A stretch of DNA of 64,000 nt from a virus (Duplodnaviria; Caudoviricetes): the IMG/VR virus record IMGVR_UViG_3300031548_000003, positions 9,521-73,520 of that record. One strand, 5' to 3'. A program made the position numbers and the translations under genes. The notes beneath the pieces are model-generated. The model made no database searches and was not told the DNA's origin. It worked only from the letters and a program-made list of their open reading frames with translations. Shown piece after piece: positions 30,324 through 62,477 of the stretch; positions within the stretch are counted from its first letter, which is position 1; every line of letters starts with the position of its first letter.

Positions 30324-30742
30324 TAGTTGCTTGGGATTAAAAGGACTTTCTTTTTCGTTTGGTTCACGTTTAGTTAGGTTTTAGTTTGTCCACTTCCACA
30401 GCTACATTTTTTTTCATTTGGAACTTCAAGTACTTGCACTCCACAATGGTCTGCGTTATCCCAAAGTGTAGAATCATCACAGTTAAGAATCTCAAGAAGG
30501 TGCTTTGCTTCCTTTGGTGTGGTCTTTTTAGTGTTGTATATGATTAATGTTCTTTTCATATTTAGTTGAATGATCATTTAATATGATACATGAAATATCA
30601 CTACCAATTCCAGCAAAAGTTCCGCCCCAGAGACCGATAGTAAACGGCTCACAATTCAACCCTTTACACACAAGTACTGCTATTAGTCCGGCAAATACGC
30701 CTAATAAAACTCTAATAATAAATTCCATATTTTTAGTTAAAT

Positions 30743-31504
30743 TTAGTTATTTTCTTTAAATCGAAATGTTGTATAAGAGTGACATTTATCACACTGCTTC
30801 TGAATCTTCTTAACTCCTGCTGCTGTGTATCTTATCTTTGATGTTTTAAAACTATCACCCCCGCAGTTAGGGCAAGTTTCATCTTTGTCCCATCCACCTA
30901 TTGCCCCTAGGTGGGGATGATTTTTAATGTAAGGCTTAATCTTCTCATAGAGTTCTTCCAGAAGTTGAACATCACCTTTATTATAAGTAATCATTTCTTT
31001 AACAGCCGATTCGTCCCCTTTTAGTACCCTTAACCATAACCCCTTACTAGTCTCTATTTTACCCTCCCCTAGTAGGTGTTTACCTAAGTAGTCTAGGCGA
31101 TGAGAGGTAAATGTGGCTATCTTCTTAATTTCTTTCAGAGTATCCAGTTGCAGTATACCAGAAGGAAGAGGATCGAGTCCATGAAAAATTAGTCTGGCAT
31201 TAATTTTACGAGTATCAAAATGCTTGGAATTATGTCCTATTATAATATCGGCCTCTTCAAATACTTCCCTAATCTTTTTTAACACCACCAAGTCATTACT
31301 AACATCCTTCTTGAAGGCTTTAAGATCATCCAGAATTGATGAATTATAAATTGGCTTCTTTCCTAGAAACTTCCAAGCTATACAGATAATAGACCAATCT
31401 TGAAGAATATTATCATGTGGAATACTCTCCGGATATAGAGAGAAGGTTGCCGCCACTGCTGGTAAAGTTTCTATATCAAATAGAACAATTTTAGGTTCCA
31501 TCAA
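30743..31504 (-). CDS. RNase H-like / DnaQ-type 3'-5' exonuclease with C-terminal zinc ribbon (253 aa)
   Basis: 'LFDIET', 'GHNSKHFD', 'YNKGDV' Exo I-III motifs; CxxC...CxxC tail. Confidence 0.75.
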   Translation of the reverse strand: MMEPKIVLFDIETLPAVAATFSLYPESIPHDNILQDWSIICIAWKFLGKKPIYNSSILDDLKAFKKDVSNDLVVLKKIREVFEEADIIIGHNSKHFDTRKINARLIFHGLDPLPSGILQLDTLKEIKKIATFTSHRLDYLGKHLLGEGKIETSKGLWLRVLKGDESAVKEMITYNKGDVQLLEELYEKIKPYIKNHPHLGAIGGWDKDETCPNCGGDSFKTSKIRYTAAGVKKIQKQCDKCHSYTTFRFKENN

Positions 31505-31756
31505 TCTTTATTATCGCATTGTTCAAGCACATCTGCCATTGCATCCCTTAATTCTTTAAGATGCGCTATCAATTTATCCACCTTATCTACACCTCTTTGA
31601 TTGGCTAGACTGAGGTACAGATTAATATAATCTCTACCATCTCTGATTGATAAGTTAGCTTGAGGATATTCTCCGTCTTCTACCTTAGAGAGTATAGAAA
31701 AGTCATCAGAATAGTCGTGGACCCAAGTAGATTTATTATGTATTATTTCCATAAGT

Positions 31757-32416
31757 TTATCGGTCTAAATCATTCACAATTCTTCTTTCTGCCTCTCTTA
31801 CTGTTGATACAATTGCTGTCATCAAATCTTCATAATCCTCGGAAGTCCTTCTATCTTCTCCTGAATAATTATCTAAGGCCCGAAACGCTCGACAGATGTT
31901 TACACTAAGCCCTCTATCTCTATCTAGCTCTAACCTGGATACAGTATCATTTACTTGATAAAGATTATTGTCGTACAGTGCCTCTACAACGTCCATTAGC
32001 ACTTCTGCCTGGATTGTATTAATGTTATAGAGTTGTGATACTTTATTGATAAAGTTTTGAAGAAATTGTTTTTCATCAATCTCTTGGCGTTGCATTGCAA
32101 TCACCAGATTATTTATTGGTTGCTCTTGCGGTTCCATCCAATTTATTATTTTGTCTAAATCTTCGTCTTCAATGTTGAAATCAAGGAGGTTTTCTTTCGT
32201 TAGGGTGTGGATCTTAGAACTATAGGAGAAGTCGCTTGAATCAGCATTCAACTCTTGAATCATCACCGCCCTATTCTCAGTTAGACCTATAGTATAGGTA
32301 TTGTCATTCTGATTATAGAATGATTTATAGACTCTGCCTTCTTTAGGATGACCTTCGTAGATTACTGTATGTTCTAGGTTAGTCCATTTAAATTTTTCTA
32401 TGAAGAGGAATGTCAT
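31757..32416 (-). CDS. Hypothetical protein (219 aa)
   Basis: Clean ORF in an overlapping-gene operon; no motif recognised. Confidence 0.5.
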   Translation of the reverse strand: MTFLFIEKFKWTNLEHTVIYEGHPKEGRVYKSFYNQNDNTYTIGLTENRAVMIQELNADSSDFSYSSKIHTLTKENLLDFNIEDEDLDKIINWMEPQEQPINNLVIAMQRQEIDEKQFLQNFINKVSQLYNINTIQAEVLMDVVEALYDNNLYQVNDTVSRLELDRDRGLSVNICRAFRALDNYSGEDRRTSEDYEDLMTAIVSTVREAERRIVNDLDR

Positions 32417-32597
32417 TAGGGGTTCTTTTTCTCGTTTAGGTCTGATATGTGGAACTCTAGAAATAACAAAGCTTTGTAAGAACTCAATCTGTTATTGTAA
32501 CAATTTTTAAAGTACTCTACATGTTCAAACAGAATCTCATCTGAGTATTTAAATTCATGACTTCTAATACCCACATTTATTAGATATTGTTTGAAAG

Positions 32598-33266
32598 TCA
32601 TAACTTTGCTTTGTTCATCATAAAACTATCTAGTGTAGAAAGAGATTCTTCTCCTTCGGTTGGTAAATCAGCAACAGTATAGGTAGGAATCTGAAGAGGT
32701 TTCTCGATGTTCAGAGTAGCCTCTAGTTTCTTGGCTGATTCAAGAAGTCCAGGCAACTTTTCTCCAAGTTCCTGTGCTATCTTTAAAGTCTTAGGATCTG
32801 TAATCTTTACTTCTTTTCCTTTTGAATCAACCACTACCTTACCCTTTACTACCATTGGTATTTTCTTGTCTGTTTTCAGGAAATCTTTTATCTCCTGGAT
32901 TTGAGAATATAATGTTCTAAGTGTATCCTCATCCTCATCAAACTGAATTTCTCTGTATTTTTTGATTGCTGCTTCAATCACCTCAACCTCTCCTCCTACT
33001 ACACTTCTGCCATTTCTATCAAGCCTTTTACCTTCCATTAGGTAACCGGCTAGTTTAGCCGCTTCTTCTCTTCTTTGCTTTTCTGGAAGAGTACGTAAAG
33101 GACTTTTCTTGTCTGAGAAAAGTATAACAAACTTTATCCTCCTATCCCTAACCTCCGGTGTTCTTGCATTAATATCAGGGTCATCCAGCTTTGCGAATTC
33201 AGGTATTGAATGAAGCCCTGGGTTTAGATCAAATACGTTATCAGTTTGATTAATTTTAAACAGCAT
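32598..33266 (-). CDS. Conserved helical protein, possible terminase small subunit (222 aa)
   Basis: Resembles the conserved crAss-like protein found upstream of terL ('FSDKKSPLR...IEAAIKKY'); assignment tentative. Confidence 0.35.
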   Translation of the reverse strand: MLFKINQTDNVFDLNPGLHSIPEFAKLDDPDINARTPEVRDRRIKFVILFSDKKSPLRTLPEKQRREEAAKLAGYLMEGKRLDRNGRSVVGGEVEVIEAAIKKYREIQFDEDEDTLRTLYSQIQEIKDFLKTDKKIPMVVKGKVVVDSKGKEVKITDPKTLKIAQELGEKLPGLLESAKKLEATLNIEKPLQIPTYTVADLPTEGEESLSTLDSFMMNKAKL

Positions 33267-33879: not shown

Positions 33880-34251
33880 TCATAACAATGCAATTACAAT
33901 TAATACTCCTGTTCCAATAAGTGATAATGTCTTTAACACCCGCTGCTTACGGGCATCTTTCTTAGCTAGCTTCAATTCCCTATTAAGGATATCCATTTCC
34001 TCATCTTTTAGTTTAACTACTTGATTACAGGTAGCTGAGTCCTGCTTGTAGGTTTCTATTATTTTATTCTGGATTAGGAGTTGCTGATTTAAGTTCAAAA
34101 CGATTTCGGTATTAAGGGAATCTTTTCTCGTTAAGACTCGAGCAAGATCATCTCTCTCTAAGAAATACCTGGCAGTCTCTGTAGGTATCGTTACCTGAGC
34201 GGAAGCAAAAAATGGTACACTTCCAAATAGTATAATTAAAAAATACCTCAC
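33880..34251 (-). CDS. Spanin-like membrane protein (123 aa)
   Basis: Signal peptide ending 'ASA-Q', coiled coil, C-terminal hydrophobic helix. Confidence 0.4.
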   Translation of the reverse strand: MRYFLIILFGSVPFFASAQVTIPTETARYFLERDDLARVLTRKDSLNTEIVLNLNQQLLIQNKIIETYKQDSATCNQVVKLKDEEMDILNRELKLAKKDARKQRVLKTLSLIGTGVLIVIALL

Positions 34252-34503: not shown

Positions 34504-34782
34504 TTATTTTTTAAATTCTTCAATTGATATCTTCTTTATAAACTTTACCGTGGACTTTGGTATCCTGGTAATAGCTCCTACTGTTTCACCTTGATTGAAA
34601 AAACTATCCATTAAAATCAAATAGTCGTCGTTGTTCTCTAGCATGAAGCCCACCTGGCTTACTATACCACTTTCGGAATCTACCCAATGAATAGCATCGT
34701 CGATATCTCTCCAACTGGTGTCAGTTGAGATAATGTCTTCCCACTCACAAAAAGTTAATGGATATTTATTAGTATTTGTCAT
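34504..34782 (-). CDS. Conserved phage hypothetical protein (92 aa)
   Basis: 'W-x-D...W...VGF...IP' pattern recurrent in small phage beta-barrel proteins. Confidence 0.4.
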   Translation of the reverse strand: MTNTNKYPLTFCEWEDIISTDTSWRDIDDAIHWVDSESGIVSQVGFMLENNDDYLILMDSFFNQGETVGAITRIPKSTVKFIKKISIEEFKK

Positions 34783-35164
34783 TAGCTCTTCTTATCATTT
34801 CTTGCTCCAGCTCAGCAGCATTTTTTCTTACGTAAGCCCCACGAATCTTCCTGATTTCTTTTAGAAGCTCTTCATTTATTCGAAGAGTGCTTTTATTAAT
34901 CCTATCAATAGAATCAAAACGATTAATAAAATCCAGCCGTTGTCGTTCTGATCTTCTGAAGTTGTATTCGAGTTGTAAGTATTTAGATTCGAAGTCATTT
35001 TTAATTTTGTTTTTATAGAGGTCTTTTTCTCGTTTGAATCTGGCTCCTGTGAATAAGCTAACCCCGAGAAGTACTGTAAGTATTGCAACTGCTATTTTCC
35101 AAATCATATTTTTAAAGATTAGGGGAGGAAAAACCACTAACCTCCCCATGAATCCAAACCACAT
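34769..35164 (-). CDS. Inner-membrane spanin-like protein (real start probably MIWK at 35107)
   Basis: N-terminal transmembrane helix followed by a long coiled coil. Confidence 0.4.
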   Translation of the reverse strand: MWFGFMGRLVVFPPLIFKNMIWKIAVAILTVLLGVSLFTGARFKREKDLYKNKIKNDFESKYLQLEYNFRRSERQRLDFINRFDSIDRINKSTLRINEELLKEIRKIRGAYVRKNAAELEQEMIRRANDKY

Positions 35165-35200: not shown

Positions 35201-35671
35201 TTAGTTACATTTAGTTATTTTGGATATGCGTAACAAAATAAAGTACCCCAATAGATCTTGAATACTGTCTTCAGTATCTTCATTTAAGCCTTTATTAGCT
35301 ATTCTTGATAGTTTATCGTTTATCCTGGCTTGAATGGCTGTTACAGGATCAATATTAAATAATATACCGCTCTTTAAAGCTGAATCGCCGTACATAGCAT
35401 TCTTCTTTAGAAGAAGTTCTTTTAGCTCATCACATTCTTTTATTATTAAATCTCTTGAACTAAGGGGCTTGTTCTCGTTTAGGTCTGAATGTGTCTCATC
35501 ATATCCTAATTCTGTAGGCTCCAGATACAAAAAATTATCTCCATTTTGTACCAAATATTCACCCAATATATCATTACAAGTTATAATTTTGACTACTTGT
35601 CCAATATTAAGTCCATGACGAGTTACGTCATTTACAACCCTGACCCTGTCTCCTTCCTTAAATTTTAGCAT
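35201..35671 (-). CDS. SH3/KOW-like N-terminus + DUF1599-like (nucleotide-modification-associated) domain (156 aa)
   Basis: 'LLKKNAMYGDS...RINDKLSRI...EDSIQDLLGY' pattern. Confidence 0.6.
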   Translation of the reverse strand: MLKFKEGDRVRVVNDVTRHGLNIGQVVKIITCNDILGEYLVQNGDNFLYLEPTELGYDETHSDLNENKPLSSRDLIIKECDELKELLLKKNAMYGDSALKSGILFNIDPVTAIQARINDKLSRIANKGLNEDTEDSIQDLLGYFILLRISKITKCN

Positions 35672-36043: not shown

Positions 36044-36223
36044 TCATGAGGCCCAAGCTAAAGCTATGAGCGTTCCTATCGCTCCCATTGTTATCCCTAA
36101 TCCGATATAGTGACGTATTTTCTTTTTTACACAAAAAGCCAAGTAAAGGGATAGTCCTCTAGCCTCTTCATCTTGCATGTAATCTCTACAACCTTCGTAG
36201 AAATATTGTTCTAGGGGTTTCAT
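36044..36223 (-). CDS. Small membrane protein (59 aa), absent from the ORF track
   Basis: Translated by hand: MKPLEQYF...IGLGITMGAIGTLIALAWAS*. Its stop overlaps the ATG at 36047, the likely true start of the next gene. Confidence 0.5.
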   Translation of the reverse strand: MKPLEQYFYEGCRDYMQDEEARGLSLYLAFCVKKKIRHYIGLGITMGAIGTLIALAWAS

Positions 36224-36225
36224 TT

Positions 36226-36417
36226 TTAGTTTGGTTCTAATGATTCAGATAATGGCATCCAGTGAGTAGGGGTATGATAAACGTACATTGACCCGTCAGG
36301 CGAAAACCAAATATTGCCATGTCTTTCAAGATTTGTAACAACTCGCCTTTTACTCTGTAAAACTTGTACTATAACACCATCATCTGGCAACCTGTCTTTA
36401 ACGCTGATCCAATTCAT
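36226..36417 (-). CDS. DUF551-like phage protein (63 aa)
   Basis: 'WISVKDRLP...THWMPL' signature. Confidence 0.7.
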   Translation of the reverse strand: MNWISVKDRLPDDGVIVQVLQSKRRVVTNLERHGNIWFSPDGSMYVYHTPTHWMPLSESLEPN

Positions 36418-36835: not shown

Positions 36836-37153
36836 TCATTGCTCGATATAAAGAATAAATTTATAAAGTCCTTTGCTTTCAGGTTCAAAGATTACTACGG
36901 TGTTACCCGCGATTACTTTGGCAGTAATTATATATTTAGCTCCATTTTTATCAGAACATATCCACTTAGATTTAGACTCTTTCTTTATTAAGAAGAGTTC
37001 AAGTGTGTAGTCTTTGGTAGTTAAAGAGACTTTTTTCTCGTTTAGGTCGAAAGATGTTGATTGGACTTTATCTAAAAGATAACCATCCTGATAAATCTCA
37101 ACATCCTGAGCTAAACAGGAAAAAGAAATTAAAAGAAGGATAAAAGTTTTCAT
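36836..37153 (-). CDS. Secreted protein with Sec signal peptide (105 aa)
   Basis: 'MKTFILLLISFSCLA-Q'. Confidence 0.5.
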   Translation of the reverse strand: MKTFILLLISFSCLAQDVEIYQDGYLLDKVQSTSFDLNEKKVSLTTKDYTLELFLIKKESKSKWICSDKNGAKYIITAKVIAGNTVVIFEPESKGLYKFILYIEQ

Positions 37154-41036: not shown

Positions 41037-41528
41037 AGAATTAAACGAGTTTAGGTATTTAAACGTTATATTTAGTTAAAAAGTTTCAGGATCAAACGAG
41101 AAAATAACCCCTTATGTTCCTCACAGTAAGCTTCATTAATATCTTTTAGTATTATTCTACAACTATTACAAATAGCTACAGGACTACCTGAGTTATATTT
41201 TATTAGGGGCTTTATTTTTCGTTTAAATTTCATCATCAAATAGTCTCATATTCCAAATCAAACGAAAAGAAATTCCTCTAAACCAATAATAACCGTCTAC
41301 TTAATTCCCTTTCAAACATCCAGTCAACACAATAACTTCCTCCCTTTTCTGCCCATATCATCTGATCCTCTCCATTTAAATAAACCCTATAAGATATATG
41401 AGGCTCATCTTCGCTATAATTTCCATGTCTACTAGAAGGTATATAAATAGTCTTCTTTTCTACTTCATATCCTAACCTATTAAGGTAGGCTACTTTTTCT
41501 TCAAACGTATAGAATAATGTAATGTGCT

Positions 41529-43304
41529 TCATATTCTTGAATGTCTAATTGGGTCTAATCCATTACAGGTGTACCCACAGTAGTCTTTATTAATTTTTAA
41601 GATTACAGGGCTATCTTTCTCCGTTTGAAATCCACCAGTCTCAACTTCCTTTATCTTGGCTACATGTACCTGTAGATTCTCCCGTTCAAAAGGATGATTA
41701 GTTAATCTGTGAAGAATTAAAAAATCATCTACCTTATTGCTTTTCATTACACCCATTTCAGTATCTCCTTTAATTGGTACTAGGATGTAACCGTCTTTAT
41801 CCTTCTTCCTGGCGGCTTCAGAGTTGATATGATCACACACCCACACTGATGAATAGTTCTCCTTGAATACTCTGAGGATGTTTAGAGAATGAATTAAATT
41901 CGAGTATCTGTCTACGTTCTTAGGGGGATCAAAACTATTCCAGGGTTCGGCTACTAACACTTCATATTGAAACCCTTCATCATGAATGATTTCTGCTTTT
42001 AACAGAAAATCCTCTAGGGTATGAAATTGTTTTGAACTTATAATCCTGAAATGTTTTTTTACGAATTCGTGAGACTTAGTTAATTCTTCGCCATCCATTA
42101 ATTTTAATGGTTTTCCGATATAAAATTCCTTCAGCTTCTTTCTTACCATTCCATCCCCGTTTTCAGCAGAATGAATTAGAATCTTCCACCCATGAAGTCT
42201 AGCAGCAAGAACAGCCAAATACCATACTAAATAGCTTTTGCCTACATTATCCAGTGCAACACACCAAACAATATGATGTTTCTTAAACATCCAATAAGGG
42301 TTTAAACCGTTCAATCCGGTGGGCAGCCCCATTTCAAGAGTTCCATTTATAACAGCTAATTCATATTCCAGCATCTCACTTTCATCAGCTAGAAAGTCAT
42401 AACTGCCATCTTCTCTTCGTAAGAATTGCTGTGACTTCTCAATCTTCTTGCTTTCTACAAGAGGTTGTGCTTTTCCATACCCTATTCCATCTAGAATAGT
42501 CTGGTGCGCTCCATCAAAATCTTTTGGCCCCTTGGCCTTTATCTCCTCATCTAGGATTTTAATAGCCTCTTCCTCATTTACTCGTCCGGTAGCTATGTAC
42601 CCACCTAAGAGTTTTGCAGCTTTTAAAAGAGTCTCATGTTTATTCCCATCATAACTAGATCTCACCATTCCTACAGCAGTAGAGATGACCTGATGAGTTC
42701 TGCGATTAGCTACTTTCTCTTTGTTCTTCTTCCTATCCTCTTCCTTCATCCGCTTGTCCCATACCAAGGCATTAGGATAGATGTAGATATTTGGGTCATA
42801 ACTTTCGTAGGTTCCTCTGGAGATGTTTCTCGAAGTGGAGTCTAACTCTGGATATCGGTCAAGGAATGCGGTATAGTAGAGGTTATGATTCTCGATGGAA
42901 GCCGGACATTTAACGAGAGCCTTTACTCCCAATCCACTAGGACCAATCCAGGCGGCATAGATATAAGGGTCATTCTTTAACTGCTCTATTTTCTGAATTA
43001 CATCACATTTGTCCCAATCAAGAACAAAGACCCCTGAATGTTCAGTTACGCAGTCATCTAACCGACAGGTATTGTAGGTTCTACCCTTCTTGGTTACTTC
43101 TTTAGGTTCTACTTTTGCAGCACTAAATACAACGAATGGTAACTCCTCTTTATCTTCATCATAATTCTCCTCTGCCCCCGCCTTTCTTCTTATTTCATTT
43201 ATCTTATCTTTTGATTTACCCTCTCTTATTCTTTCTAAAGCCCTCTCCACTGAGATATAAAGAGGATTGTTAATGTCTCCGTAATTCTTAAAAATGGTTA
43301 TCAT
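41529..43304 (-). CDS. Primase-helicase: BT4734/VirE-N-like primase domain + DnaB-like (SF4) helicase (591 aa)
   Basis: 'HSGVFVLDWD...GPSGLGVK' N-terminal domain; Walker A 'ALDNVGKS' and Walker B 'LVAEPWN'. Confidence 0.8.
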   Translation of the reverse strand: MITIFKNYGDINNPLYISVERALERIREGKSKDKINEIRRKAGAEENYDEDKEELPFVVFSAAKVEPKEVTKKGRTYNTCRLDDCVTEHSGVFVLDWDKCDVIQKIEQLKNDPYIYAAWIGPSGLGVKALVKCPASIENHNLYYTAFLDRYPELDSTSRNISRGTYESYDPNIYIYPNALVWDKRMKEEDRKKNKEKVANRRTHQVISTAVGMVRSSYDGNKHETLLKAAKLLGGYIATGRVNEEEAIKILDEEIKAKGPKDFDGAHQTILDGIGYGKAQPLVESKKIEKSQQFLRREDGSYDFLADESEMLEYELAVINGTLEMGLPTGLNGLNPYWMFKKHHIVWCVALDNVGKSYLVWYLAVLAARLHGWKILIHSAENGDGMVRKKLKEFYIGKPLKLMDGEELTKSHEFVKKHFRIISSKQFHTLEDFLLKAEIIHDEGFQYEVLVAEPWNSFDPPKNVDRYSNLIHSLNILRVFKENYSSVWVCDHINSEAARKKDKDGYILVPIKGDTEMGVMKSNKVDDFLILHRLTNHPFERENLQVHVAKIKEVETGGFQTEKDSPVILKINKDYCGYTCNGLDPIRHSRI

Positions 43305-44235: not shown

Positions 44236-44522
44236 AAATCAAAATGACCGTCTAACTATTGATTGTATAAATACCTTCAAGACCAGTAATCATGCCTACT
44301 CTAAATAAGTTTCGTAATTGTTTCCAGGTATACGAACCTCCGTATAGACTTTTAGCATAATCCCTTACAAAGGATTTACCGACCATCAGGATAGAATTCT
44401 GTTTGTCCCCGTTTTTTGGAAGCAAATCATTCACCAGCTTTTGTAGATCCTCATAAGTTATTTTAGTGTAATCTTCAGTTGAGTCGTTCATAGTTTTGAA
44501 ATTTAAACGAGAAACAAATCTC

Positions 44523-44873
44523 CTAACCAATCATTTTCTCATAACGCTGAGGATCTAACATCTTAGTTACTTTGAGTATTTGCTCGTAGTTCAGGAGGTT
44601 CTTTATTTCGTTTGAGGCCACATTTTCCGCTAATAGGTTACAAGAAAAACAAGATCTGAACCAGTTAATAGGGTTCCAGATATACTCTGTTTTACCTGAA
44701 GACTTACAAAGTGCTTTAGGATAAATATGAGCTGTACAGGTCGCAGGTTGCCCACATCCTTCACAGCTTCCTACAGGGTCAAATAGATAGAATTCCTTAT
44801 ATGCAGCACTTAATTTTGATTTAATAACACCTTCCGAAACTTTGGTCCCATCTGAGCATTTGTAATAGTTCAT
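44523..44873 (-). CDS. Small Zn-binding HNH/NinG-like nuclease (116 aa)
   Basis: 'CEGC...TAHIYPK...N...CFSCN'. Confidence 0.4.
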   Translation of the reverse strand: MNYYKCSDGTKVSEGVIKSKLSAAYKEFYLFDPVGSCEGCGQPATCTAHIYPKALCKSSGKTEYIWNPINWFRSCFSCNLLAENVASNEIKNLLNYEQILKVTKMLDPQRYEKMIG

Positions 44874-45159
44874 CTAGGCGAGTACCAATGCCAATGTCGA
44901 GAAGATGATAGAAACAATTATAATTAAGGCATAATCGTCAATTTCAAAGTTTTTTCCGATTTTCATTTTTAGTTATTTTTAGTTATTTCCGAATTAAACG
45001 AGGAAACCTCTATGTACCAATCACAACCATTGTTATAAACAAATTGACCATATGCTTGCCAGTAATCATTAGGTATAGCTACGTATCTATAGCAGGTCTT
45101 TTTAAGAGGACATTCCTCATTTTTACACATTGATATATCAGACATAATTACCTCCTTAA

Positions 45160-45855
45160 TTAAAAGTATTCATTATAAGTAGAATCCAAGGCTCTCTTCA
45201 AAAAGAGTAATTGAAGATTAGTATCGTACCTCACGTACCAATCGTCACCGTACTGAAGTTTGTACATATTCTGTACCACTTCCCTCATCTCTTCTTTAGA
45301 TTTACCTTCCAGAACCTCAGCGGCAGTTGCTTCTGAGAAATTAGGCGGACTAGTCCAATGTGACTTATACGGGTTCTTGATTCCAGGTATATTATCAACT
45401 TTATCCCCAGTCAGGCATTGGCGGTAGAAAAAGAACTCAGGATTATTAATCACGTGAACTTGATCTTTAAATGGGTCATAGATAGTAGCCGGTAACTGGA
45501 AGAAATCTTTATCGACGGAGCAGATAATACAATCCTCATCGTGATTCATAGCAATGAGGTCATCCGCTTCTAAACCAAACGAAAAAATAGCCCCCCAATA
45601 CTTTATAAAGTACTCTCTGGCATCATGCAGATATTGAGGTTTTGATGCTGAGACTCGATTAGCTTTATAGGAAGGATCAATCTTTTTACGAAAGTTCTCT
45701 GGACCTGACAGAAAAAGAGAAATCTCCCTGGTATCCCACCTATCCATTATTCTTTCTAAGATATTCTCGCAAGCTTTTACTCCTCTATAGTACCCTTCTA
45801 CTGCAAACAGTCCTTTATACAGTACCCCGTCTAAATCAACTAGGAGTCTTACCAT
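45160..45855 (-). CDS. 5'-3' exonuclease (T7 gp6 / flap-endonuclease family) (231 aa)
   Basis: 'LVDLDG', 'YKANR', 'EADD', 'SVDKD', 'GDKVDNIPG'. Confidence 0.85.
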   Translation of the reverse strand: MVRLLVDLDGVLYKGLFAVEGYYRGVKACENILERIMDRWDTREISLFLSGPENFRKKIDPSYKANRVSASKPQYLHDAREYFIKYWGAIFSFGLEADDLIAMNHDEDCIICSVDKDFFQLPATIYDPFKDQVHVINNPEFFFYRQCLTGDKVDNIPGIKNPYKSHWTSPPNFSEATAAEVLEGKSKEEMREVVQNMYKLQYGDDWYVRYDTNLQLLFLKRALDSTYNEYF

Positions 45856-46958: not shown

Positions 46959-47019
46959 ATCAGAAAGGTACTCATGAGTAAACGGTTCTGCTTTTTGTAA
47001 GTAAACTTCATACCGCTCC

Positions 47020-47950
47020 TAACGAACACTTATCTAATTTAGTTACATCATTTTCTAAATTAGTTACAACTCAATCCTAAGCCCTAGGAGACTCTATAAT
47101 TACTGGGATGATTACAGATAGGTCTAAAATAATCTCTTCCTATAAGTCAATTCTGAGGGTATAGGAGAAAATCCTCTGTTTCTGTATAGAATTCAAGGAT
47201 TTATATAATTTTTTGTATGTGGAGTATGGTTAATCCCCTACCCACCCCCGTCTTTTTACCCTAAAGTTTGACATACCCCCTGGGATGATCAATTCCCCCT
47301 GAAAAAGCATTCTTTATTTCCATAAAACTATTGAAGTAAAGGGCTGGGATGATTACAATACCTCACCTGACACCTCACCTGATTAGGGTAATACCTCATT
47401 TTTGATATTGAAAAGGCTGTTTTTATTAGTCCTGTCAGGACTGCGATAACATTCAGTAGTCAAGTACGAAAGTATTCGTAGATAATAGATTATTACTCTA
47501 CTCTTTGGATTAATAGAGGCTATTAAACAATTAAACTAATTATTGATGAAACTTTATTGATCAAGCAAACTAATCACTAATAAACTATTAATTATTCAGT
47601 AGATTATTTGGATAGTTCCCGATAAAACACAAAGAATATTCTGAATTAATGTAATTAGGCATTATACTAACTCAAACAAGAGCTTTTTAAGCTTAAATTG
47701 GAATATTTACCCCACACTACAACGCGCCCGCAAACCTTTCTCTTCTCTCTTAGTGTAATTGCTTTTATAGGTAATTTGATATATGGGTTTAGGGGGTTTG
47801 TTTCTCGTTTGATTTTGAAAATAGTCTTTTTTATTATTTAAGGGGATTCTTTTCTCGTTTGATTCCCAAATTGAGACTAACTAAATATTTAAATTATTTT
47901 TAGGTAATCCCTTGACTTTTAACCTAAATTAGGTATCTTTATATCATAAT
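47020..47950. other. Non-coding divergence region between the leftward and rightward gene blocks
   Basis: No substantial ORFs; direct repeats ctgggatgattaca (47103, 47344) and acctcacctga (47360, 47372); two copies of the dispersed motif. Confidence 0.6.
47912..47941 (+). promoter_or_regulatory. Host-type (Bacteroidota sigma-A) early promoter
   Basis: TTGACT-N16-TATCTTTA resembles the -33 TTG / -7 TAnnTTTG consensus; 10 nt upstream of the first rightward ORF. Confidence 0.55.
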
Positions 47951-47951: not shown

Positions 47952-48125
47952 ATGAATACGAATATGACAACATACAAAAACATTCTAATTGGGCTGTTAG
48001 TTTTAGCGATTGGTTTAAGTATCATAGCCGGAGGCGATATTGTAGCAACAATTCTAGTTGGGCTAGTATTAACCATAGCAATGATTGCTAGGTTTACAAT
48101 GTACAATAATATTAAAAACGACTAA
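47952..48125 (+). CDS. First early gene: small two-helix membrane protein (57 aa), absent from the ORF track
   Basis: Translated by hand: MNTNMTTYKNILIGLLVLAIGLSIIAGGDIVATILVGLVLTIAMIARFTMYNNIKND*. Confidence 0.55.
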   Translation: MNTNMTTYKNILIGLLVLAIGLSIIAGGDIVATILVGLVLTIAMIARFTMYNNIKND

Positions 48126-51100: not shown

Positions 51101-52355
51101 TTGCCCTATCGGCTGTTCAAGCTACTATCTTGAACTTAAAGTATATTGAAAAACTAGGACTTGCAACCGCGAACACAATCGCTTCTGTAGAAGATTTGAA
51201 AGTATACGAAAAGCAGTTGAGTGATTACATCAGGTCTGAAAGAGAAGAGAGTAGGATATCTCTAAATGAACTTCTAAATAAGCTTTTAGGAAGATGAGAG
51301 TGTTTAACTATAACCACAATCAATGTTTACCTTTTTAACCTAAAATTAACTAAATATGAAAAAAGACATTAATCAGGTATTAGCTGCTTATTATGCTAAT
51401 CAAAACTCAGTTACCCAATCTTGTATTAAGGGGGCTGTTTCTCGTTTGATTTTGAAAAGTAAATAACTAAACATTCAGAGAACTAGCCGCTAAATTCTCC
51501 ACAAGTATTTCAAATATAGTAACAGTGTGTAAACATAAAACTTGGACTGATTAAACATTAAAATTTTATGGAGTCTAAAATAAAACTTCCACTTTTCATA
51601 GTTGAAAAATCAAACAGCTATTGGATAATATGGGATACTACTACTCATGAAATAGTAGGTACATTTGAAACAAAAGAAAATGCAGAAGCTAAATTAAAAA
51701 CCCTTTAAATTTAAAAATTATGACTAGAGATGAAATAGCATTAAGAATTCTTACTTCTGATTTAATCGAAAGATTAATAACTGAAAAGCAGCAATCTGAT
51801 TTACGCGCCCATCATGTCATGGATACTCCGTTGCTAGCATCAGAAAGACTAAGAATTAGCTTTGAACTAGCTGATGAATTTATATCTCAATCTGAAATGA
51901 GAATAAAAACTGAAGGAAATAAAACCTTCCAATTCATCTTAAAAATAGAAGCAGATACCCTAGATGATGCGATTTTAAAAAATAATCTAAAAGGTAAAGT
52001 TATTATGTGGCAAGAGATAGACAAAAAATCGAATCTTGGATCTCAATTGTATAGTCAAATATTACCCAGTCATTTGACCTAAACCAAACGATTTGAAAAT
52101 ATGAAAATATCAATCACACTTAGAGAATTCGAAAATGCCGGCGGCAATCCTACCAAAATGAATATAGAAAAGACATTTGTTACCTATGGTGATAAACACA
52201 AAAACAAACCTATTAAGAGTATAACCTTTGATTCTAATAATAGCTCAGGTGGTAAACTTTGGAATGTCTTTTTTAAAGATGGGAGTACTCATCGGTATTC
52301 AGAAATGTGGATAACAACCGAAGTAGAATTTGTACTATCAAAAGAATACGTTTAA
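48137..52355 (+). other. Cluster of about 12 short early (host-takeover-type) ORFs of unknown function
   Basis: Co-oriented 60-220 aa ORFs with shared leader sequences, downstream of the early promoter. Confidence 0.6.
48551..49030 (+). repeat. 40-bp direct repeat (48551-48590 and 48991-49030), each copy ending in a start codon
   Basis: aaaataattaactttcagcctttaaaacaaacgacttATG vs aaaataattaactttcaatctttaaaacaaacgacaaATG; 36/40 identical. Confidence 0.85.
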
Positions 52356-52413
52356 CTCCAAAATCAAACGAGAAAAGAATCCCCTATATTAGTAGTAAAC
52401 TAATACAAAAACT

Positions 52414-53310: not shown

Positions 53311-53529
53311 ATGTCAAGCACTTCACAAACAATCTTCATTCCTATTACCGTTGAGGTAACCAATTCTCATCAAAATGCTGGTAGACTAAGAAGCACCAGA
53401 GCAGATCTACGCCATTATCTTGAATTGATAATGGTCAGTAATGAATTGGCTTTTGATGATGAGTACCTCAAATCACTTACAGCTCAGTTGTGGCCTATTT
53501 TAAAGGCATCTATTAAATCCAGAATGTAA
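53311..53529 (+). CDS. Small protein (72 aa) in its own transcription unit
   Basis: Flanked by a promoter, structured leader and strong terminator. Confidence 0.55.
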   Translation: MSSTSQTIFIPITVEVTNSHQNAGRLRSTRADLRHYLELIMVSNELAFDDEYLKSLTAQLWPILKASIKSRM

Positions 53530-53540
53530 GGGATGTCCTA

Positions 53541-53575
53541 AAGATAGAATCCGTAAGGGGTTCTATCTTTTTTTT
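53541..53575 (+). terminator. Intrinsic terminator
   Basis: AAGATAGAATCC / GGGTTCTATCTT stem followed by a T-run. Confidence 0.8.
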
Positions 53576-54887
53576 GTTAAATTTTGAAACAACTAAATAT
53601 AAATTAACGTTTAACTAAATATGGAACACAATGGACTAGAACCAAAAGGCATCAAACCAACTAATTATGAAAGGGTTCTTCTTCAGCATTTTTTTGGGCA
53701 TATTCCTGCCATTATTACCTGGAACACTCTCATCCCCATGCTTGAAAGCATAAATCACTATGATTGCCTGTTTAATATTTATACTTCACGTACAAATGGG
53801 CATATCTACTATTCAGTAGTTATATGGGAAGGTGAAATGGACCAGCCAATTAGCGGATATGATCAATGGGAGGCTGATCTTATCCAAAGAACTTATAAAT
53901 CAATTATTGAATATATTAATTGGTCACAAAAACATTAAATTATATTAAACAATAATGACTATAGAGCGTTTTATAAAAAAATTTAACCATATGCAATGGT
54001 CAATCATAACATTAATAGTGGGTTGTGTCTTGGCAGGGGTTGTGATTTATTTTTTTAATTGTATGCTATTAACGATAATGAAGTAAATCTAAAACAACCC
54101 TTTTTATGCCAAACAAACCCACAAACACGACCCAGATCATTCACACATTCGCAAATCGTCTTGGTGCTTTAGTTATTAAATCCCAGGATCAGTACTCAAT
54201 CACTCTCATGGCTAATGATGATTATTATCCCCAGGCCAGTTGGGAAACTGATTCTGAAGAAGAAATGATGTCTATTTTGGAGGATATAAAAATTTTTCCT
54301 ACAGACTAGCTATTACAGTAAATAACACCTAATTTTGTTAAAACCACAAACTTTTATGAAACAATCGATCATAACTTACCGATCGGGCGAAGTTGAATTG
54401 GATGTAAATGACCAGAAAGAGGCTACTTATTATGCGGCTTTAAAGGACAAAACACGTTTTTTACAAGACATAACTCTTTACCTGAAGGAAAAGGAAGATC
54501 TTGATGTAACTAAGATTTCGAGAATAGACTCTCCCGATGGATTAATTGTTAAAGCTGAAATAAAATCCAAATCAGTAAGTAAGGAGATTATGAAAGCTTT
54601 GTATTCGCCTGATAAAATTAAAAAATCGGGTAGTGCAAATACGAAGGGGGCAACGAAACCTAATGTAGGCTTTATATCTAATCTAATTCACTTTTTAGAA
54701 GACGAAGCTAAAAAAGGAAGAAAGGAAATCAGCTTTGATGAAGCTTACGAAACCATGCTATTTTTATTCCCTAAATTAACCAGGAATCAGATGCTGGCTT
54801 ACGTAGGTGATGTAAGATTGCAGAATAGTTGGGGATTTAAGTATCGCAGCGAAGGTAAGAACAAGGCCAAATGGATCTCTTTAAGAT

Positions 54888-54913: not shown

Positions 54914-55373
54914 GATAAAAATAACTAAAAATTACCTAAACTTTATCTAAGCATGTTACGTATAAAGATTATCTTAATCGCTGTTTCAAAGCCAACTGTA
55001 AAAACTGATTAAGATAAATACCAGTGTCTATTAGAATAAGAATAGACACTGGTAGGGGTAGAAGGAAGAGAATAAGTCTATCCTAACAATATTGGTAGTG
55101 TATGTATGATGAGCATCCATCTAGTACCAGTCCTGAGCTAGCTACCAATTTTAAAAATATGATATTGATTAAAGAAGGAAACTAAACAAAAAATAAACCC
55201 ACTATGGCACGAATAGTAATCACAAAAGCAGGCAACGAAATAACATCAGTGTATGTTAGTCCTGAAGTAGTAGGAGATCTGTCTATTGACACTATTGATT
55301 ATGATCATACTCTTCTTCCTAATGATATAATCATTGAAAATATGATTGATGATAATAAATTAACTAAAATCGC

Positions 55374-55970
55374 ATGACAGCACTACAGACAATTCAACAG
55401 AAACTTAAAGCTCCGAAATCACAATACAATCTTTTCGGAAAATATCATTTCAGAAATGCAGAGGATATTCAAGAAGCGCTCAAGCCCCTACTTGCTGAAA
55501 CGAACTCAGAATTAATAATCCCTGATAAGTTAATAGAGATTGGTGGTCATCTATTCATAGAATCAACTGCTACATTGACTGAATACACTAAAGATGGAAT
55601 GATTAAACAACAATGGGCAGTTCCGGGTTACGCAAAACATTCAGTGGAACTAAAAGGTATGCAGGATAGCCAGATTACTGGCGCAACTTCCTCTTATGCT
55701 CGTAAGTATGCGTTAAATGGTCTCTTTCTTTTGGATGATTCTAAAGATGCAGATGCAACTAATGATCACAAAACAGAATCTAAAGCGAGCACTGCTCTGA
55801 ATCAAACAGAAATAAAACCCCCTAAGACTCAGGACAACCCCTGGCTAAATGAAGGAACTAAAGAATTTGATACTGTAAAAGCAAATGTACTGGCAGGTAC
55901 AACATCTTTAGAAAAAATTAAGCAATCATTTAGAGTATCTAAAGCTATACAAGCTAAATTAGGTTTATGA
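55374..55970 (+). CDS. ERF-family single-strand annealing protein (198 aa)
   Basis: 'KAPKSQYN-x-FGKYHFRNAEDI' and 'QITGATSSYARKYALNGLFLLDD-x-KDAD'. Confidence 0.85.
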   Translation: MTALQTIQQKLKAPKSQYNLFGKYHFRNAEDIQEALKPLLAETNSELIIPDKLIEIGGHLFIESTATLTEYTKDGMIKQQWAVPGYAKHSVELKGMQDSQITGATSSYARKYALNGLFLLDDSKDADATNDHKTESKASTALNQTEIKPPKTQDNPWLNEGTKEFDTVKANVLAGTTSLEKIKQSFRVSKAIQAKLGL

Positions 55971-56037: not shown

Positions 56038-57699
56038 TTGTCTAATCCTGTTATTTACACTATGAAAACCATAAAAGATTTTACTCCAGAAATTCAGGCT
56101 AAAATACCTCAGTATCAAGTCAAGGCTTTAGAAGGTGTTTTCGATGGAGGTCGATACAATCGCTTTAACTATGGGCATGCCTATGAAGCAGTGTGCCTTC
56201 AATATGAGAAATGTGGTTATAAAAAACCTTTAATGGTCGTAGCTGAAAATCCTTATGAAGCACAGCTACTGTATAATTTTATAAAACATTTATTTACTCC
56301 AGAGATACACGCAATCCAGTTGTACTCGCAATTGGACTCGCAGTTGGGCTCGCAGTTGAACTCGCAGTTGCGCTCGCAGTTGGGCTCGCAGTTGGACTCG
56401 CAGTTGTACTCGCAGTTGAACTCGCAGTTGCGCTCGCAGTTGGGCTCGCAGTTGGACTCGCAGTTGGACTCGCAGTTGCGCTCGCAGTTGGGCTCGCAGT
56501 TGGACTCGCAGTTGTACTCGCAGTTGGACTCGCAGTTGAACTGGCAGTTGAACTCGCAGTTGGGCTCGCAGTTGAACTCGCAGTTGCGCTCGCAGTTGGA
56601 CTCGCAGTTGCGCTCGCAGTTGGGCTCGCAGTTGGACTCGCAGTTGTACTCGCAGTTGGACTCGCAGTTGGACTCGCAGTTGCGCTCGCAGTTGGACTCG
56701 CAGTTGGACTCGCAGTTGCGCTCGCAGTTGGGCTCGCAGTTGGGCTCGCAGTTGTACTCGCAGTTGGACTCGCAGTTGAACTGGCAGTTGAACTCGCAGT
56801 TGCGCTCGCAGTTGGACTCGCAGTTGCGCTCGCAGTTGGGCTCGCAGTTGGACTCGCAGTTGAACTGGCAGTTGAACTCGCAGTTGCGCTCGCAGTTGTA
56901 CTCGCAGTTGCGCTCGCAGTTGTACTCGCAATTGGACTCGCAGTTGTACTCGCAGAGAATCCAATATGTTAATGATTACTTATTTACATTAAACATTTAT
57001 TCATCATGCTTATTTACATGGTGGAATTTTATTGCAAACGAGTTAAATATCAAGGCTCCAATAAAAAAAGAGTTAGAGATGTTTAGTTCAGCATATGAAA
57101 AATCAAATATTTATTCAGCTATATTTACCGAAGCAGTATGTATAGTAAGTAAGTTCCCTAAAGCAATACATAGAAACTCCAATAATGATCTTCATAGTAC
57201 TAATGAATCTGCTGTAGAATGGGCATCGTTCTCCGATCTTACAAAGTGGGAATGTTTTTATGTAAATGGACGATTGATTGATAAACAAATTTTCTCTAAA
57301 GTAGTTGAGAATAAAATGACCTTTGAGGAATTTGTTAAGATTCAGAATGAGGATGAAAAAGGTATAATCATTAGCATGATCAAAGAGAATAAAGGCAATG
57401 AGGGACTATTAAATTTTCTTCAAGCTGTTGAAGTAGATTCTAAAACTATCAGGCATACAAAAGATTATTCCGAAACTATAAAGTTGTTTAAGACAAAACA
57501 ATCCTATTCTTTTTTACAAAATTCAAAAGGTGAGCTAAATCAACCGTACGCATGGATACACATGGTATGCCCATCTACTCGTACGGAGTATTTGATAGAT
57601 ACCTGTCCCACATTTACAGATGCAATTGAATGTGCTAAATGGCACAGGCCAAAACAAGTTCCTAAAGAACTAAAATACGAATGGATCAGTGCGAATTAG
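56038..57699 (+). CDS. DUF6745-like protein with a 52-unit SQLx repeat (553 aa)
   Basis: C-terminal 'AVEW...NG...IQNEDEK...CPSTRTEY...AIECAKW' family pattern; central tetrapeptide repeat. Confidence 0.65.
   Translation: MSNPVIYTMKTIKDFTPEIQAKIPQYQVKALEGVFDGGRYNRFNYGHAYEAVCLQYEKCGYKKPLMVVAENPYEAQLLYNFIKHLFTPEIHAIQLYSQLDSQLGSQLNSQLRSQLGSQLDSQLYSQLNSQLRSQLGSQLDSQLDSQLRSQLGSQLDSQLYSQLDSQLNWQLNSQLGSQLNSQLRSQLDSQLRSQLGSQLDSQLYSQLDSQLDSQLRSQLDSQLDSQLRSQLGSQLGSQLYSQLDSQLNWQLNSQLRSQLDSQLRSQLGSQLDSQLNWQLNSQLRSQLYSQLRSQLYSQLDSQLYSQRIQYVNDYLFTLNIYSSCLFTWWNFIANELNIKAPIKKELEMFSSAYEKSNIYSAIFTEAVCIVSKFPKAIHRNSNNDLHSTNESAVEWASFSDLTKWECFYVNGRLIDKQIFSKVVENKMTFEEFVKIQNEDEKGIIISMIKENKGNEGLLNFLQAVEVDSKTIRHTKDYSETIKLFKTKQSYSFLQNSKGELNQPYAWIHMVCPSTRTEYLIDTCPTFTDAIECAKWHRPKQVPKELKYEWISAN
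56326..56955 (+). repeat. Coding 12-bp tandem repeat, 52 full units of TCG CAG TTG NNC
   Basis: The variable codon takes only GAC, GGC, AAC, CGC or TAC; three units have TGG in place of TCG. Confidence 0.95.
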
Positions 57700-57728
57700 T
57701 ATTAATAAAAATTTAAACAATTAAAAAT

Positions 57729-59021: not shown

Positions 59022-59022
59022 T

Positions 59023-59517
59023 ATGACTAACTATTACACATGTTGTGGTTATGCCTTCTCTTTGAACAGAGTCATATTTAAAGACTTAGTGCATGATGCT
59101 TGGCTATACCACTTCATGCGTACTGGAGAAGACTTATTCTCACTGTCAAAATATCAGGCAGCACGACAAATAAAATATGCCTATTTCAGGTACGGTAATT
59201 TGACATATAAAGAATCTATACAAGAGGTTCGAGGCGATGATCTATTTCATTGGGAGGCACCTGATCATTTAATGATCCTCTCTGAGGATGAGGCAAATGA
59301 GAATAGGTTCTTTAATCAGTTATATCGAAAGATTTGGCGTAAGTCATCGAAATTAAAAGGGGGTGTGAAGCTGATTGAGTTGTATAAACTCATGAAAAAG
59401 GGCTATAACCAAAAGGAAATTTCAGAAATACTAGGTATCTCTCGATCCCTCGTAAATTTTTATGTGAAGAAGGTAAAAGAACTGGCAATTACTATTCCAA
59501 TTAATGTTTCAGAATGA
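59023..59517 (+). CDS. ECF sigma-factor-like protein (164 aa)
   Basis: 'KDLVHDAWL' resembles ECF region 2; 'GYNQKEISEILGISRSLV' is a region 4-type HTH. Confidence 0.5.
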   Translation: MTNYYTCCGYAFSLNRVIFKDLVHDAWLYHFMRTGEDLFSLSKYQAARQIKYAYFRYGNLTYKESIQEVRGDDLFHWEAPDHLMILSEDEANENRFFNQLYRKIWRKSSKLKGGVKLIELYKLMKKGYNQKEISEILGISRSLVNFYVKKVKELAITIPINVSE

Positions 59518-61400: not shown

Positions 61401-61632
61401 AATACAAACAATCAATTAAAGACCCTAGAATTATTGAGGATCAAATGGGAGAACCTACATTCAAACATATTGGGCTTCATACTTCAGATGTAACTGATTT
61501 ACTAGCTGATTTAGATCAGATGGAAACTAAGATTTATGAATTGGAGAAGCAATCTGAAAAAAAGACTGATGAGATTGAGGAATTGAAGGAGAGAATTGAA
61601 GAGTTAGAGCAAGAGATAACCCTGATGAAAGA

Positions 61633-62088
61633 ATGAGTACGAATTTTCAAACACCAATACAGGTTTGTGAATACATGGTATCATTATTAAATCAAACCTA
61701 TTACGAATCAATACTTGAGCCCACACCTGGGCTGGGTAACTTATCAAATGCAGCAAAGTCTCGTGGAGTTGTCAGCTCCCCAGGAGATTTCTTTCAAATG
61801 GGGCAAGAGAGATTCGATGCTATTGTTATGAATCCACCATTTACTCCAATGGAATTAGGTTATAAGATACTATTCTCTTGCATGGAGATGTCAGATGAAA
61901 TTGTTGCTTTAATGCCTTGGTTGACTTTAATCAACTCTCAAAAAAGAACCAATACCCTGATGACTTTTGGTATGCAATCAGTGACGCACTTACCTCGTAC
62001 TATATTTAAAGGTTCGAGAGTTCAGTGTTGTGTTATTCATTTAGTAAAAAACTATTCAGGGAAAACAATATTCAATAATTACAAATGA
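61633..62088 (+). CDS. N6-adenine/N4-cytosine DNA methyltransferase-like protein (151 aa)
   Basis: 'ILEPTPGLG' SAM-binding motif and 'MNPPF' catalytic motif. Confidence 0.7.
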   Translation: MSTNFQTPIQVCEYMVSLLNQTYYESILEPTPGLGNLSNAAKSRGVVSSPGDFFQMGQERFDAIVMNPPFTPMELGYKILFSCMEMSDEIVALMPWLTLINSQKRTNTLMTFGMQSVTHLPRTIFKGSRVQCCVIHLVKNYSGKTIFNNYK

Positions 62089-62477
62089 GTAGCATTGATC
62101 AAGTTCAGGATTGTATTTCATGGCTAAACGAGAATAAAACCTCCTCTAACCTTGTACAAATATCTACGTTAATAAATAGATTAGCGGTACTGAGTGTCAA
62201 TATAGGGCATGACGTATCTGAAGCTTATGCAATAACTAATGAACTAGAAGACACATATAAGATAGCATTTGCTAAGAAGGTTTCTTCTTCGTTAGACTCC
62301 GCCGCTAAAGCAGAGAAAAGGGCCGAGTCCGAACTTGAACAAGAAAAGAAAGACTGGACCCAAGCTAAAAATGCTTATAAGAGGTTGAGTATCTATCTTG
62401 AAAGAATTGATAAGGTCATTGAGAGTTACCGTCAATCAGTGTCAGTACAGAAAATGGTGGATTTAAAGCATAGTTAA
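62085..62477 (+). CDS. Coiled-coil protein, possibly a UvsY-like recombination mediator (130 aa)
   Basis: All-helical with suitable size and replication context; tentative. Confidence 0.3.
   Translation: MSSIDQVQDCISWLNENKTSSNLVQISTLINRLAVLSVNIGHDVSEAYAITNELEDTYKIAFAKKVSSSLDSAAKAEKRAESELEQEKKDWTQAKNAYKRLSIYLERIDKVIESYRQSVSVQKMVDLKHS

Follow-up and report, generated by a model that had tools for sequence, protein, structure and literature searches.

An asymmetric element repeated at gene boundaries of an uncultured soil phage, with orientation ordered by zone, as a possible promoter of a phage-encoded sigma-like factor

What kind of signal is written some two dozen times into one phage genome, on both strands and in part inside genes, and which protein reads it? 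The question is raised by a 64,000-nucleotide stretch of an uncultured tailed phage (Duplodnaviria; Caudoviricetes), namely bases 9521-73520 of the 73,520-base IMG/VR virus contig IMGVR_UViG_3300031548_000003, or 64 kb of 73.5 kb (hereafter the window, whose coordinates are used throughout), in which a bipartite DNA element recurs mainly in the non-virion part. We found that this motif is real, very strongly over-represented and conserved, and that its orientation relative to the genes is ordered by zone. The reading that we tentatively favor, at somewhat short of an even chance, is that the copies are promoters of the phage's own sigma factor-like protein of the extracytoplasmic function (ECF) type, lying in the sense direction for middle and late units and antisense across the early units.

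The pattern AAACGAGAAAANNNNCCCCTA, in which 17 bases are specified (box 1 AAACGAGAAA, N4-5 and box 2 CCCCTA), gave 18 matches with at most three mismatches as against 0.26 expected, a count that was reached in none of 100 shuffles. When all 73.5 kb of the contig were scanned with a weight matrix (spacer 3-6 nt), 27 hits of at least 16 bits came up, as compared with 0.13 per Markov-2 random genome; because some of the same copies had gone into training the matrix, the scores of individual copies are inflated, while the random-genome control is still valid. A sequence-only reading of this DNA had described a bipartite motif of ~26 bp in about 18 copies and had foreseen a count above random background, which the two scans bear out. 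All 18 of its strong copies are present at the coordinates and on the strands that it gave, and the motif is indeed bipartite, but its length had been underestimated: alignment of 30 copies from this phage and its closest relative (L036) shows that the element starts 8 nt further 5′ and spans ~31 bp (31-36 bp including a weak AA-n-CC tail), as T[C/G]A[A/G]AA[T/C][C/T]-AAACGAGAAAA-(A-rich)-N-CCCCT-AA-n-CC; 17 of the copies have a spacer of 5 nt between box 1 and box 2, 11 have one of 4 nt and two have one of 3 nt. Further copies lie at 34113, 36212, 55176, 55796 and 8701, and two more upstream of the window. Those at 25427, 44592 and 59968 are weak, as had been said, and the 1-25 kb virion module is free of strong copies, again as described, except for one moderate copy at 8701-8730. 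The motif is asymmetric, without dyad symmetry, and G is nearly absent from its top strand outside CGAG.

Nearly all copies stand at gene boundaries (Table 1). Many sense copies lie 0-30 nt before start codons, often forming the end of the upstream gene and abutting the next start (32417, 33655), and in the antisense copies at 41252, 44497 and 46454 the opposite-strand gene reads the CTA of box 2 as its TAG stop, the rest of the element filling the spacer to the next start codon. The earlier conclusion that the constraint acts on the DNA and not on the protein holds, given that copies occur in two reading frames, antisense and between genes, and that orthologous junctions retain them with a box 1 particular to each genome. 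The argument from frames had been overstated, however: five of the six sense coding copies share one frame (..LNEKK..), and it is one copy in another frame (FKREKDL) and one antisense copy (WGAIFSFGL) that bear the claim out. The latter, in an exonuclease gene, may be partly coincidental, and we rejected it as proof of co-variation (its segment is a conserved protein motif, and the L037 version fits the L037 box 1 poorly). Of the two functions suggested for the element, a bipartite protein-recognition site is supported, whereas a recombination site finds no backing in a motif without dyad symmetry that is kept at orthologous junctions in a contig where no integrase was found.

Genes run leftward from ~47 kb in the order replication, tRNA/noncoding RNA (ncRNA) array, small genes, glycan locus, terminase, portal and virion, and rightward from 47.9 to 62.5 kb, where they include ERF, a protein with 53 tandem 12-nt repeats, single-stranded DNA-binding protein (SSB), a small helix-turn-helix (HTH) protein and DNA polymerase. 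Against this map the orientation of the copies, which had been regarded as mixed and hence as an argument against a simple promoter, turns out to be orderly both here and in a relative, and that argument falls. The early zone around the divergent switch (41.0-51.5 kb) has one sense copy (41204-41232) and seven that run antisense to the genes around them, a tandem pair in the divergent non-coding gap (47790/47840, both pointing left) being counted apart; outside this zone 15 are sense and none antisense (Fisher p = 3e-5). Copies within ~5 kb of the divergent early-gene switch are antisense and the distal ones sense, and along the map the copies diverge at ~41.2 kb and ~52 kb and converge on 46.5-47.8 kb. 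The relative L037/L044 has 11 antisense copies, placed on either side of the switch, and eight distal sense copies, with one exception. This ordered orientation fits a directional transcription signal.

Relatives were compared as 15-22-kb pieces of related contigs, fetched through homologs of the primase-helicase. In L036, whose primase is 85% identical, the motif is the same, AAACGAGAA occurring in 12 copies versus 0.6 expected, the majority at junctions that have orthologs in the window. L037 and L044, which are one contig (primase 75% identical), have a variant in ~25 copies, aaaatc-TGACGAAAA-(A-rich)-CCCC(T)A, its boxes standing ~3 nt further apart: box 1 has been swapped genome-wide, so that TGACGAAAA stands where this phage has AAACGAGAAA, orthologous junctions included, and box 2 is the same. 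After the ortholog of gene 46480-46767, for example, the gene strand reads TAGGGAGTTCTTTTCTCGTTTGGATT in this phage and TAGGGGGTTATTTCTTTTCGTCAGATT in L037. The proposed site is kept at orthologous gene junctions in both L036 and L037, and in the comparison of this phage with L036 both the site and its neighbor gene next to CCCCTA persist, the gene flanking the A-rich end often being a different one. No comparable over-represented word was found in L038, L040, L041 or L042 (primase 66-68% identical), nor a comparable motif in L046, the contig with the closest homolog of the sigma-like protein considered below. A multi-copy motif was likewise found in none of 185,000 bacterial genomes (one per GTDB species), nor in IMG/VR, nor in JGI metagenomes among the matches listed; exact-pattern scans of the same databases returned single, chance-level matches and no locus with extra fuzzy copies (for JGI, among the matches listed). 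Because two relatives keep the element, one of them with a variant box 1, while distant relatives and bacterial genomes are without the motif, its reader is likely encoded by the phage. Comparing gene presence and absence between motif-bearing and motif-less relatives gave no lineage-specific reader candidate, since the early genes share no homologs at all.

Among the binders that had been put forward, the sigma-like protein is a credible reader at the level of its predicted fold. Its AlphaFold model (predicted local distance difference test, pLDDT, 86) has sigma2-like and sigma4-like helical domains joined by a disordered linker, and the top full-length Foldseek matches are ECF sigma factors over 160-178 columns, with a probability of 0.9-0.97 and E values of 0.02-0.05, none at or below 0.001. 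All of the 50 best rows from VIA-align are sigma factors, at Z scores of 7.4-9.8, a range that the tool itself notes as common for helical folds. Read by eye, the segment DLVHDAWL resembles region 2.2, and an all-against-all HMMER comparison gathered ~100 distant relatives of 150-230 aa, a few of which touch Sigma70_ECF or region-2 models; with this protein and the portal as queries, no close relatives were found in IMG/VR. The L044 ortholog (14912-15442), which occupies the same place just before the DNA polymerase gene, is 27% identical and 12 residues longer, as compared with 75% identity for the primase, a divergence that would fit a changed specificity; changes in the sigma4 domain and the linker would be expected to leave box 2 constant and to alter box 1 and the box distance, as is the case here. 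The Fis-type HTH protein (57% identical in L036, not detected in L037) is another possible, putative binder. To judge from the alignments, the primase-helicase is not the co-varying reader, because it is 75-85% identical between genomes with differing box 1. No RNA polymerase gene was found in the contig, and two virion proteins of 1128 and 1280 aa were rejected as places for a hidden one (no PDB sequence match; structural proteins by PHROGs).

On the promoter reading, a phage-encoded transcription specificity factor would use the element as its promoter or would at any rate recognize it, this factor most probably being the sigma-like protein in partnership with the host's RNA polymerase core. 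A -10-like element would be provided by box 2, CCCCTA, and an upstream specificity element by box 1 with its 5′ extension (TCAAAATC-AAACGAGAAA). The distal, gene-aligned copies would fire middle and late transcription: leftward copies at 30-41 kb would cover the tRNA/ncRNA array, the small genes, the glycan genes and then the virion genes, and rightward copies from 52 kb would cover the genes for ERF, SSB, the sigma-like protein and DNA polymerase. Copies in the early arms (41-47 and 47.8-51.5 kb), which oppose the genes and usually begin at a gene's stop codon, would give OOP-like antisense transcripts or head-on collisions and would shut off the early genes once the factor appears. In lambda, the OOP promoter, placed beyond the stop codon of a gene, directs transcription backwards into that gene's 3′ end, lowering its expression; the proposal shares with it an antisense promoter beyond a stop codon and differs in that such promoters would stand at nearly every cistron of two early operons and would be the same element that drives sense transcription elsewhere.

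Several traits are promoter-like: the element is ~31 bp long, asymmetric and built of several blocks, with a box spacer that varies by 1-2 nt; sense copies stand before the tRNA array (41204) and before the glycan genes (30339), and the tandem pair lies in the non-coding switch region. No host-type promoter pattern is enriched. The Bacteroidota-type pattern TTG-N17-22-TAnnTTTG has only three matches, all opposite to the strand of the local genes; the TAnnTTTG of the Bacteroidota housekeeping promoter TTTG-N19-21-TAnnTTTG is in neither strand of the motif consensus, and the L037 variant is without any TTTG; sigma-70-type sites and intrinsic terminators occur at chance level and without association to the motif. 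A number of observations weigh on the other side. About one third of the copies are antisense to real genes, and leftward transcripts from the pair 47790/47840 would be sense for the 41-47 kb arm, so that the shut-off logic is not clean. Sense copies at 32417, 33655, 36212 and 55176 abut or overlap a start codon, and such copies would miss the adjacent gene because the transcription start would fall 6-9 nt after CCCCTA. With 13-14 nt between the AAC of box 1 and CTA, the spacing is shorter than the usual 16-17 nt of ECF sigma factors, at whose geometry the most conserved block would sit in the normal spacer; AAC-N13-14-CTA here and GAC-N15-19-C(T)A in L037 can be reconciled with a -35/-10 geometry only when the 5′ extension is taken as the -35 element. 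The switch and the sigma-like gene are separated by 11 kb and by the terminator at 53540-53577, an arrangement that makes the route to the first expression of this gene a weak point; Pfam gives this protein weak region-4/GerE-type HTH hits and no region 2; a weak homolog occurs in L040, a relative without a conspicuous motif; and the virion module is nearly without copies.

The closest functional model for the sense copies would, by analogy, be the promoters of phiEco32-like podoviruses. The ECF-like sigma factors that they encode are divergent, and the promoter consensus is not the same among relatives: that of phiEco32 gp36 is tAATGTAtA and that of phage 7-11 gp47 is GTAAtg-N16-aCTA, with start sites 6-9 bp downstream (PMC8948821). 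Shared with them are a podovirus-sized genome of ~75 kb, a small and very divergent sigma-like protein, a phage-specific cis-element that shifts as this protein diverges, a downstream element ending in CTA (phage 7-11), and sites that stand upstream of middle as well as late genes. The present system differs in its copy number (20-27 versus 6-8), in a conserved stretch that is much longer (~31 bp), in a shorter box spacing, in its probable Bacteroidota host, in the one third of copies that are systematically antisense in the early region, and in being known from sequence alone.

Alternatively, the sites may be polar operators, which we regard as the main rival even though we think it unlikely: a two-domain phage protein bound as a monomer would, depending on the orientation of the site, stop RNA polymerase during elongation in the early arms, and the distal copies would be permissive, operators or activator sites. 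As the binder one may consider the two-domain sigma-like protein, working without polymerase, or else the Fis-type HTH protein or some early protein so far unrecognised. The model for this is found in the cluster A mycobacteriophages, temperate phages whose stoperators, asymmetric 13-mers numbering >20, occupy promoters and the short gaps between genes; their orientation follows transcription and is required for blocking, and they are read by a monomeric two-domain immunity repressor (L5 gp71, TipsytheTRex repressor) (PMC9283540). More than 20 asymmetric sites dispersed at short gene junctions, orientation tied to transcription on both switch arms, and co-variation of site and genome are hallmarks of that system (PMC9283540) that recur here, where co-evolution of the site with a monomeric two-domain reader would be part of the proposal; the antisense-class copies begin at the upstream gene's stop codon and fill the spacer to the next start, variable box spacing fits two domains on a flexible linker, and in the sigma-like family the HTH, though only the HTH, is matched by the stoperator repressor 7r6r (E = 1e-5). 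Stoperators have a single orientation, however, whereas there are two opposite classes here, and the 15 conserved copies of opposite orientation are unexplained by a pure roadblock. The site is bipartite and of 21-31 bp rather than 13 bp, no homolog of the Stoperator domain was found, and the candidate reader has a sigma-like fold rather than HTH plus Stoperator domain. No integrase (PF00589, no match), immunity region or other sign of lysogeny was seen in the 73.5-kb contig, which may be incomplete. Stoperators would be the closest model for the early-zone copies; by the tests run, the element is not a member of either the stoperator or the phiEco32-type family, and it may resemble both in its mode of action.

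Readings tied to replication, RNA or recombination are less likely than a promoter or a roadblock. The E. coli Tus-Ter fork trap consists of multiple ~23-bp asymmetric sites in two opposed groups flanking the terminus, and the present copies might similarly be fork barriers, priming or helicase-loading sites or other fork-direction signals, with 41.2 kb and ~52 kb or the iteron region at 47.0-47.8 kb as origin or terminus. Two opposed groups of ~25-bp asymmetric sites do flank a central zone, the non-coding DNA in the center contains a tandem 11-mer and palindromes besides three CTGGGATGAT(T/C)A repeats, and in the early arms the T-rich strand of the motif would be the lagging-strand template for forks leaving the switch. 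We nevertheless consider such a role improbable: GC and AT skews change sign only at 47-48 kb, with gene direction, and ignore site orientation at 41.2 and 52 kb; the primase-helicase stays much the same across genomes with different box 1; no Tus-like or RTP-like protein appeared in Pfam scans of 60 open reading frames (ORFs); and the sites are tightly tied to individual gene boundaries and genes, with a second, oppositely arranged set elsewhere. Somewhat less probable again is an element acting in RNA, with the U/G-rich complement in early mRNAs and the A/C-rich form in middle mRNAs serving processing, stability or translation, possibly by mutual pairing. Whichever way it points, the element takes up the 20-30 nt that immediately precede a start codon or follow a stop codon, and the three copies of alternating orientation before the tRNA array could form long hairpins in one transcript; but spacer length and sequence vary between copies, which limits pairing to 10 + 5 nt, no known protein reads both a sequence and its complement, copies also lie inside genes and in DNA that does not look transcribed, and no Rfam family matched. 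The least probable reading is that the copies are boundary repeats mainly for recombination, perhaps promoters as well, cassette borders that let co-infecting relatives shuffle small early genes as proposed for the promoter early stem-loop (PeSL) cassettes of T4-type phages. Between copies, the gene content varies strongly (no gene at 48-52 kb has an L044 homolog), and the changing upstream neighbors in the comparison with L036 would suit it; the strict two-zone orientation would be left unexplained, and the genome-wide change of box 1 in the relative would abolish exchange between lineages and not arise from it.

Table 1. Copies of the element and genes of candidate readers (window coordinates unless stated otherwise)
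Position	Strand	Feature	Context
contig 4376 and 7515		two further copies	upstream of the window
8701-8730	-	moderate copy, sense, 24.6 bits (weight matrix)	inside virion-module gene 8260-8898
30339-30368	-	copy, sense, weaker box 2	50-nt gap upstream of 714-aa glycosyltransferase gene
32417-32445	-	copy, sense	encodes C-terminus DLNEKKNP* of ORF 32416-32601; abuts ATG of 31757-32416 (CCCCTAATG); orthologous copy in L036
33655-33682	-	copy, sense	abuts ATG of small conserved ORF (CCCCTAATG); orthologous copy at L036 15624
34113-34141	-	copy, sense	new relative to the earlier list
35016-35043	-	copy, sense	inside ORF 34769-35164, read FKREKDL
35462-35488	-	copy, sense	inside ORF 35201-35671, read DLNENKPL
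36212-36240	-	copy, sense	box 1 degenerate because the upstream gene's stop codon falls in it; next gene's ATG in spacer; orthologous copy at L036 12220
37024-37051	-	copy, sense	inside ORF 36836-37153
41086-41113	+	copy, antisense class	between gene 41278-41532 and tRNA-Phe
41204-41232	-	copy, sense	~165 nt upstream of tRNA/ncRNA array (41036-40046)
41252-41280	+	copy, antisense class	CTA is TAG stop of gene 41278-41532; copy at same junction in L036 and L037
43301-43498	-	alternative candidate binder, 65-aa Fis-type HTH protein	directly upstream of primase-helicase gene
44497-44525	+	copy, antisense class	CTA is TAG stop of gene 44523-44873; next gene's ATG 13 nt past reverse-complement motif
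44988-45012	+	weak copy, short spacer, antisense class	3′ end of ORF 44969-45145
45569-45597	+	motif-like copy, antisense	inside 5′-3′ exonuclease gene, read WGAIFSFGL; on conserved protein segment
46454-46482	+	copy, antisense class	CTA is TAG stop of gene 46480-46767; L037 orthologous copy has L037's own box 1
47790-47818	-	best-scoring copy, points left	1-kb non-coding switch region; tandem pair with 47840-47868
47840-47868	-	second tandem copy, points left	switch region; 50 nt from copy 47790-47818
51428-51455	-	copy, antisense class	3′ end of 36-aa plus-strand ORF 51356-51466
52358-52386	+	perfect copy, sense	intergenic, 27 nt upstream of ATG at 52414; first sense copy of rightward unit
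55176-55204	+	degenerate copy, sense	abuts ATG of 55204-55377; orthologous L044 copy (13117) fits L044 consensus
55796-55824	+	moderate copy, sense	3′ part of ERF gene
59023-59517	+	candidate reader, 164-aa ECF-sigma-like protein	directly upstream of DNA polymerase gene
62118-62146	+	copy, sense	41 nt inside ORF 62085-62477, read WLNENKTSS

Only two public runs contain the contig of this soil phage, both of them rhizosphere metagenomes of DNA. CheckV puts its completeness at 60%; despite this value the 73.5-kb contig is probably near complete, because the contigs of many relatives also measure 72-77 kb. Its uncultured host probably belongs to the Bacteroidota, since the nearest cultured phages, with a primase identity of at most 32%, infect Maribacter, Cellulophaga and Flavobacterium; megablast of cultured phages gave no match to this DNA. 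The closest cultured relative, Maribacter phage Panino (L043; PP540027.1, 1-40000), has a dispersed word of its own, CACTATCA, in 21 copies (~0.5 expected for a related 9-mer), 18 of them on the + strand and several directly before an ATG, which may be an analogous lineage-specific signal.

Other features of the window and its relatives were noted in passing. At the switch, an ORF-free region of 830 nt (46958-47790) contains the CTGGGATGAT(T/C)A repeats at 47103, 47280 and 47344, the tandem 11-mer ACCTCACCTGA twice at 47360-47382 and the palindrome AGTCCTGTCAGGACT, and is a candidate replication origin or att-like site. A strong intrinsic-terminator-like hairpin on the + strand (53540-53577; 13-bp stem, then a T8 run) follows gene 53311-53529 and divides the rightward gene block, with no recognisable promoter downstream. 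Further along that block, at 56317-56955 (+), the 553-aa ORF 56038-57699 contains 53 tandem copies of the 12-nt unit CAGTTGGACTCG (88% matches), which encode a tetrapeptide repeat and raise the local GC to 49%. Two small hydrophobic ORFs below length cut-offs, 44877-44966 (-; 30 aa) and 47952-48125 (+; 57 aa), have good start contexts and probably encode membrane peptides. An HNH/homing-endonuclease-like gene (24375-25382, -) lies directly upstream of the large terminase gene, with the weak motif copy 25427-25457 in the 70-nt gap before it, and in several relatives HNH/NUMOD homing-endonuclease genes are inserted beside the primase gene. L036 has a class-I aminoacyl-tRNA-synthetase-like gene (1328-3277; 649 aa) and a ClpP-like protease gene (14287-15003), both absent from the window.

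A second word, separate from the dispersed motif, is found at the starts of genes: TAACTAAA occurs in 41 copies versus 11 expected, window-wide (e.g., 25403, 30739, 43507, 46446, 51347, 53612 and 58282), nearly all co-oriented with the gene, mostly 0-3 nt before the ATG and often duplicated, and is also present in L036 and L037. It looks like a lineage-specific translation-initiation signal for a host without Shine-Dalgarno pairing. For the dispersed motif itself, pairing with the 16S 3′ tail, or a role like that of a termination upstream ribosomal binding site (TURBS), was rejected: the complementarity would be poor, and the antisense copies are left unexplained. We also rejected a hairpin terminator formed through GGGG, for which the flanks of the antisense-class copies 41252 and 46454, read by eye, showed no complementary upstream partner.

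Returning to the promoter reading, its fullest form, which we put forward as doubtful, is that one factor and one ~31-bp asymmetric element in two orientations run the whole switch from early to middle and late expression: sense copies would turn genes on, copies antisense at the 3′ end of nearly every early cistron would silence through convergent transcription or polar blockage, and this architecture would be kept while element and factor co-evolve among Bacteroidota phages. Bacteroidota hosts have unusual promoters and do not rely on Shine-Dalgarno pairing, and we know of almost nothing on transcription control in their phages. Here, an information-rich cis-element, a small candidate sigma-like reader and a natural specificity swap (AAACGAG vs TGACGAA) make a ready system for defining a new promoter/sigma pair, and the motif allows expression units to be annotated across a whole uncultured phage lineage. 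If the antisense copies are functional, this lineage would have a hard-wired, genome-wide shut-off of early genes by the same signal that turns on the later ones.

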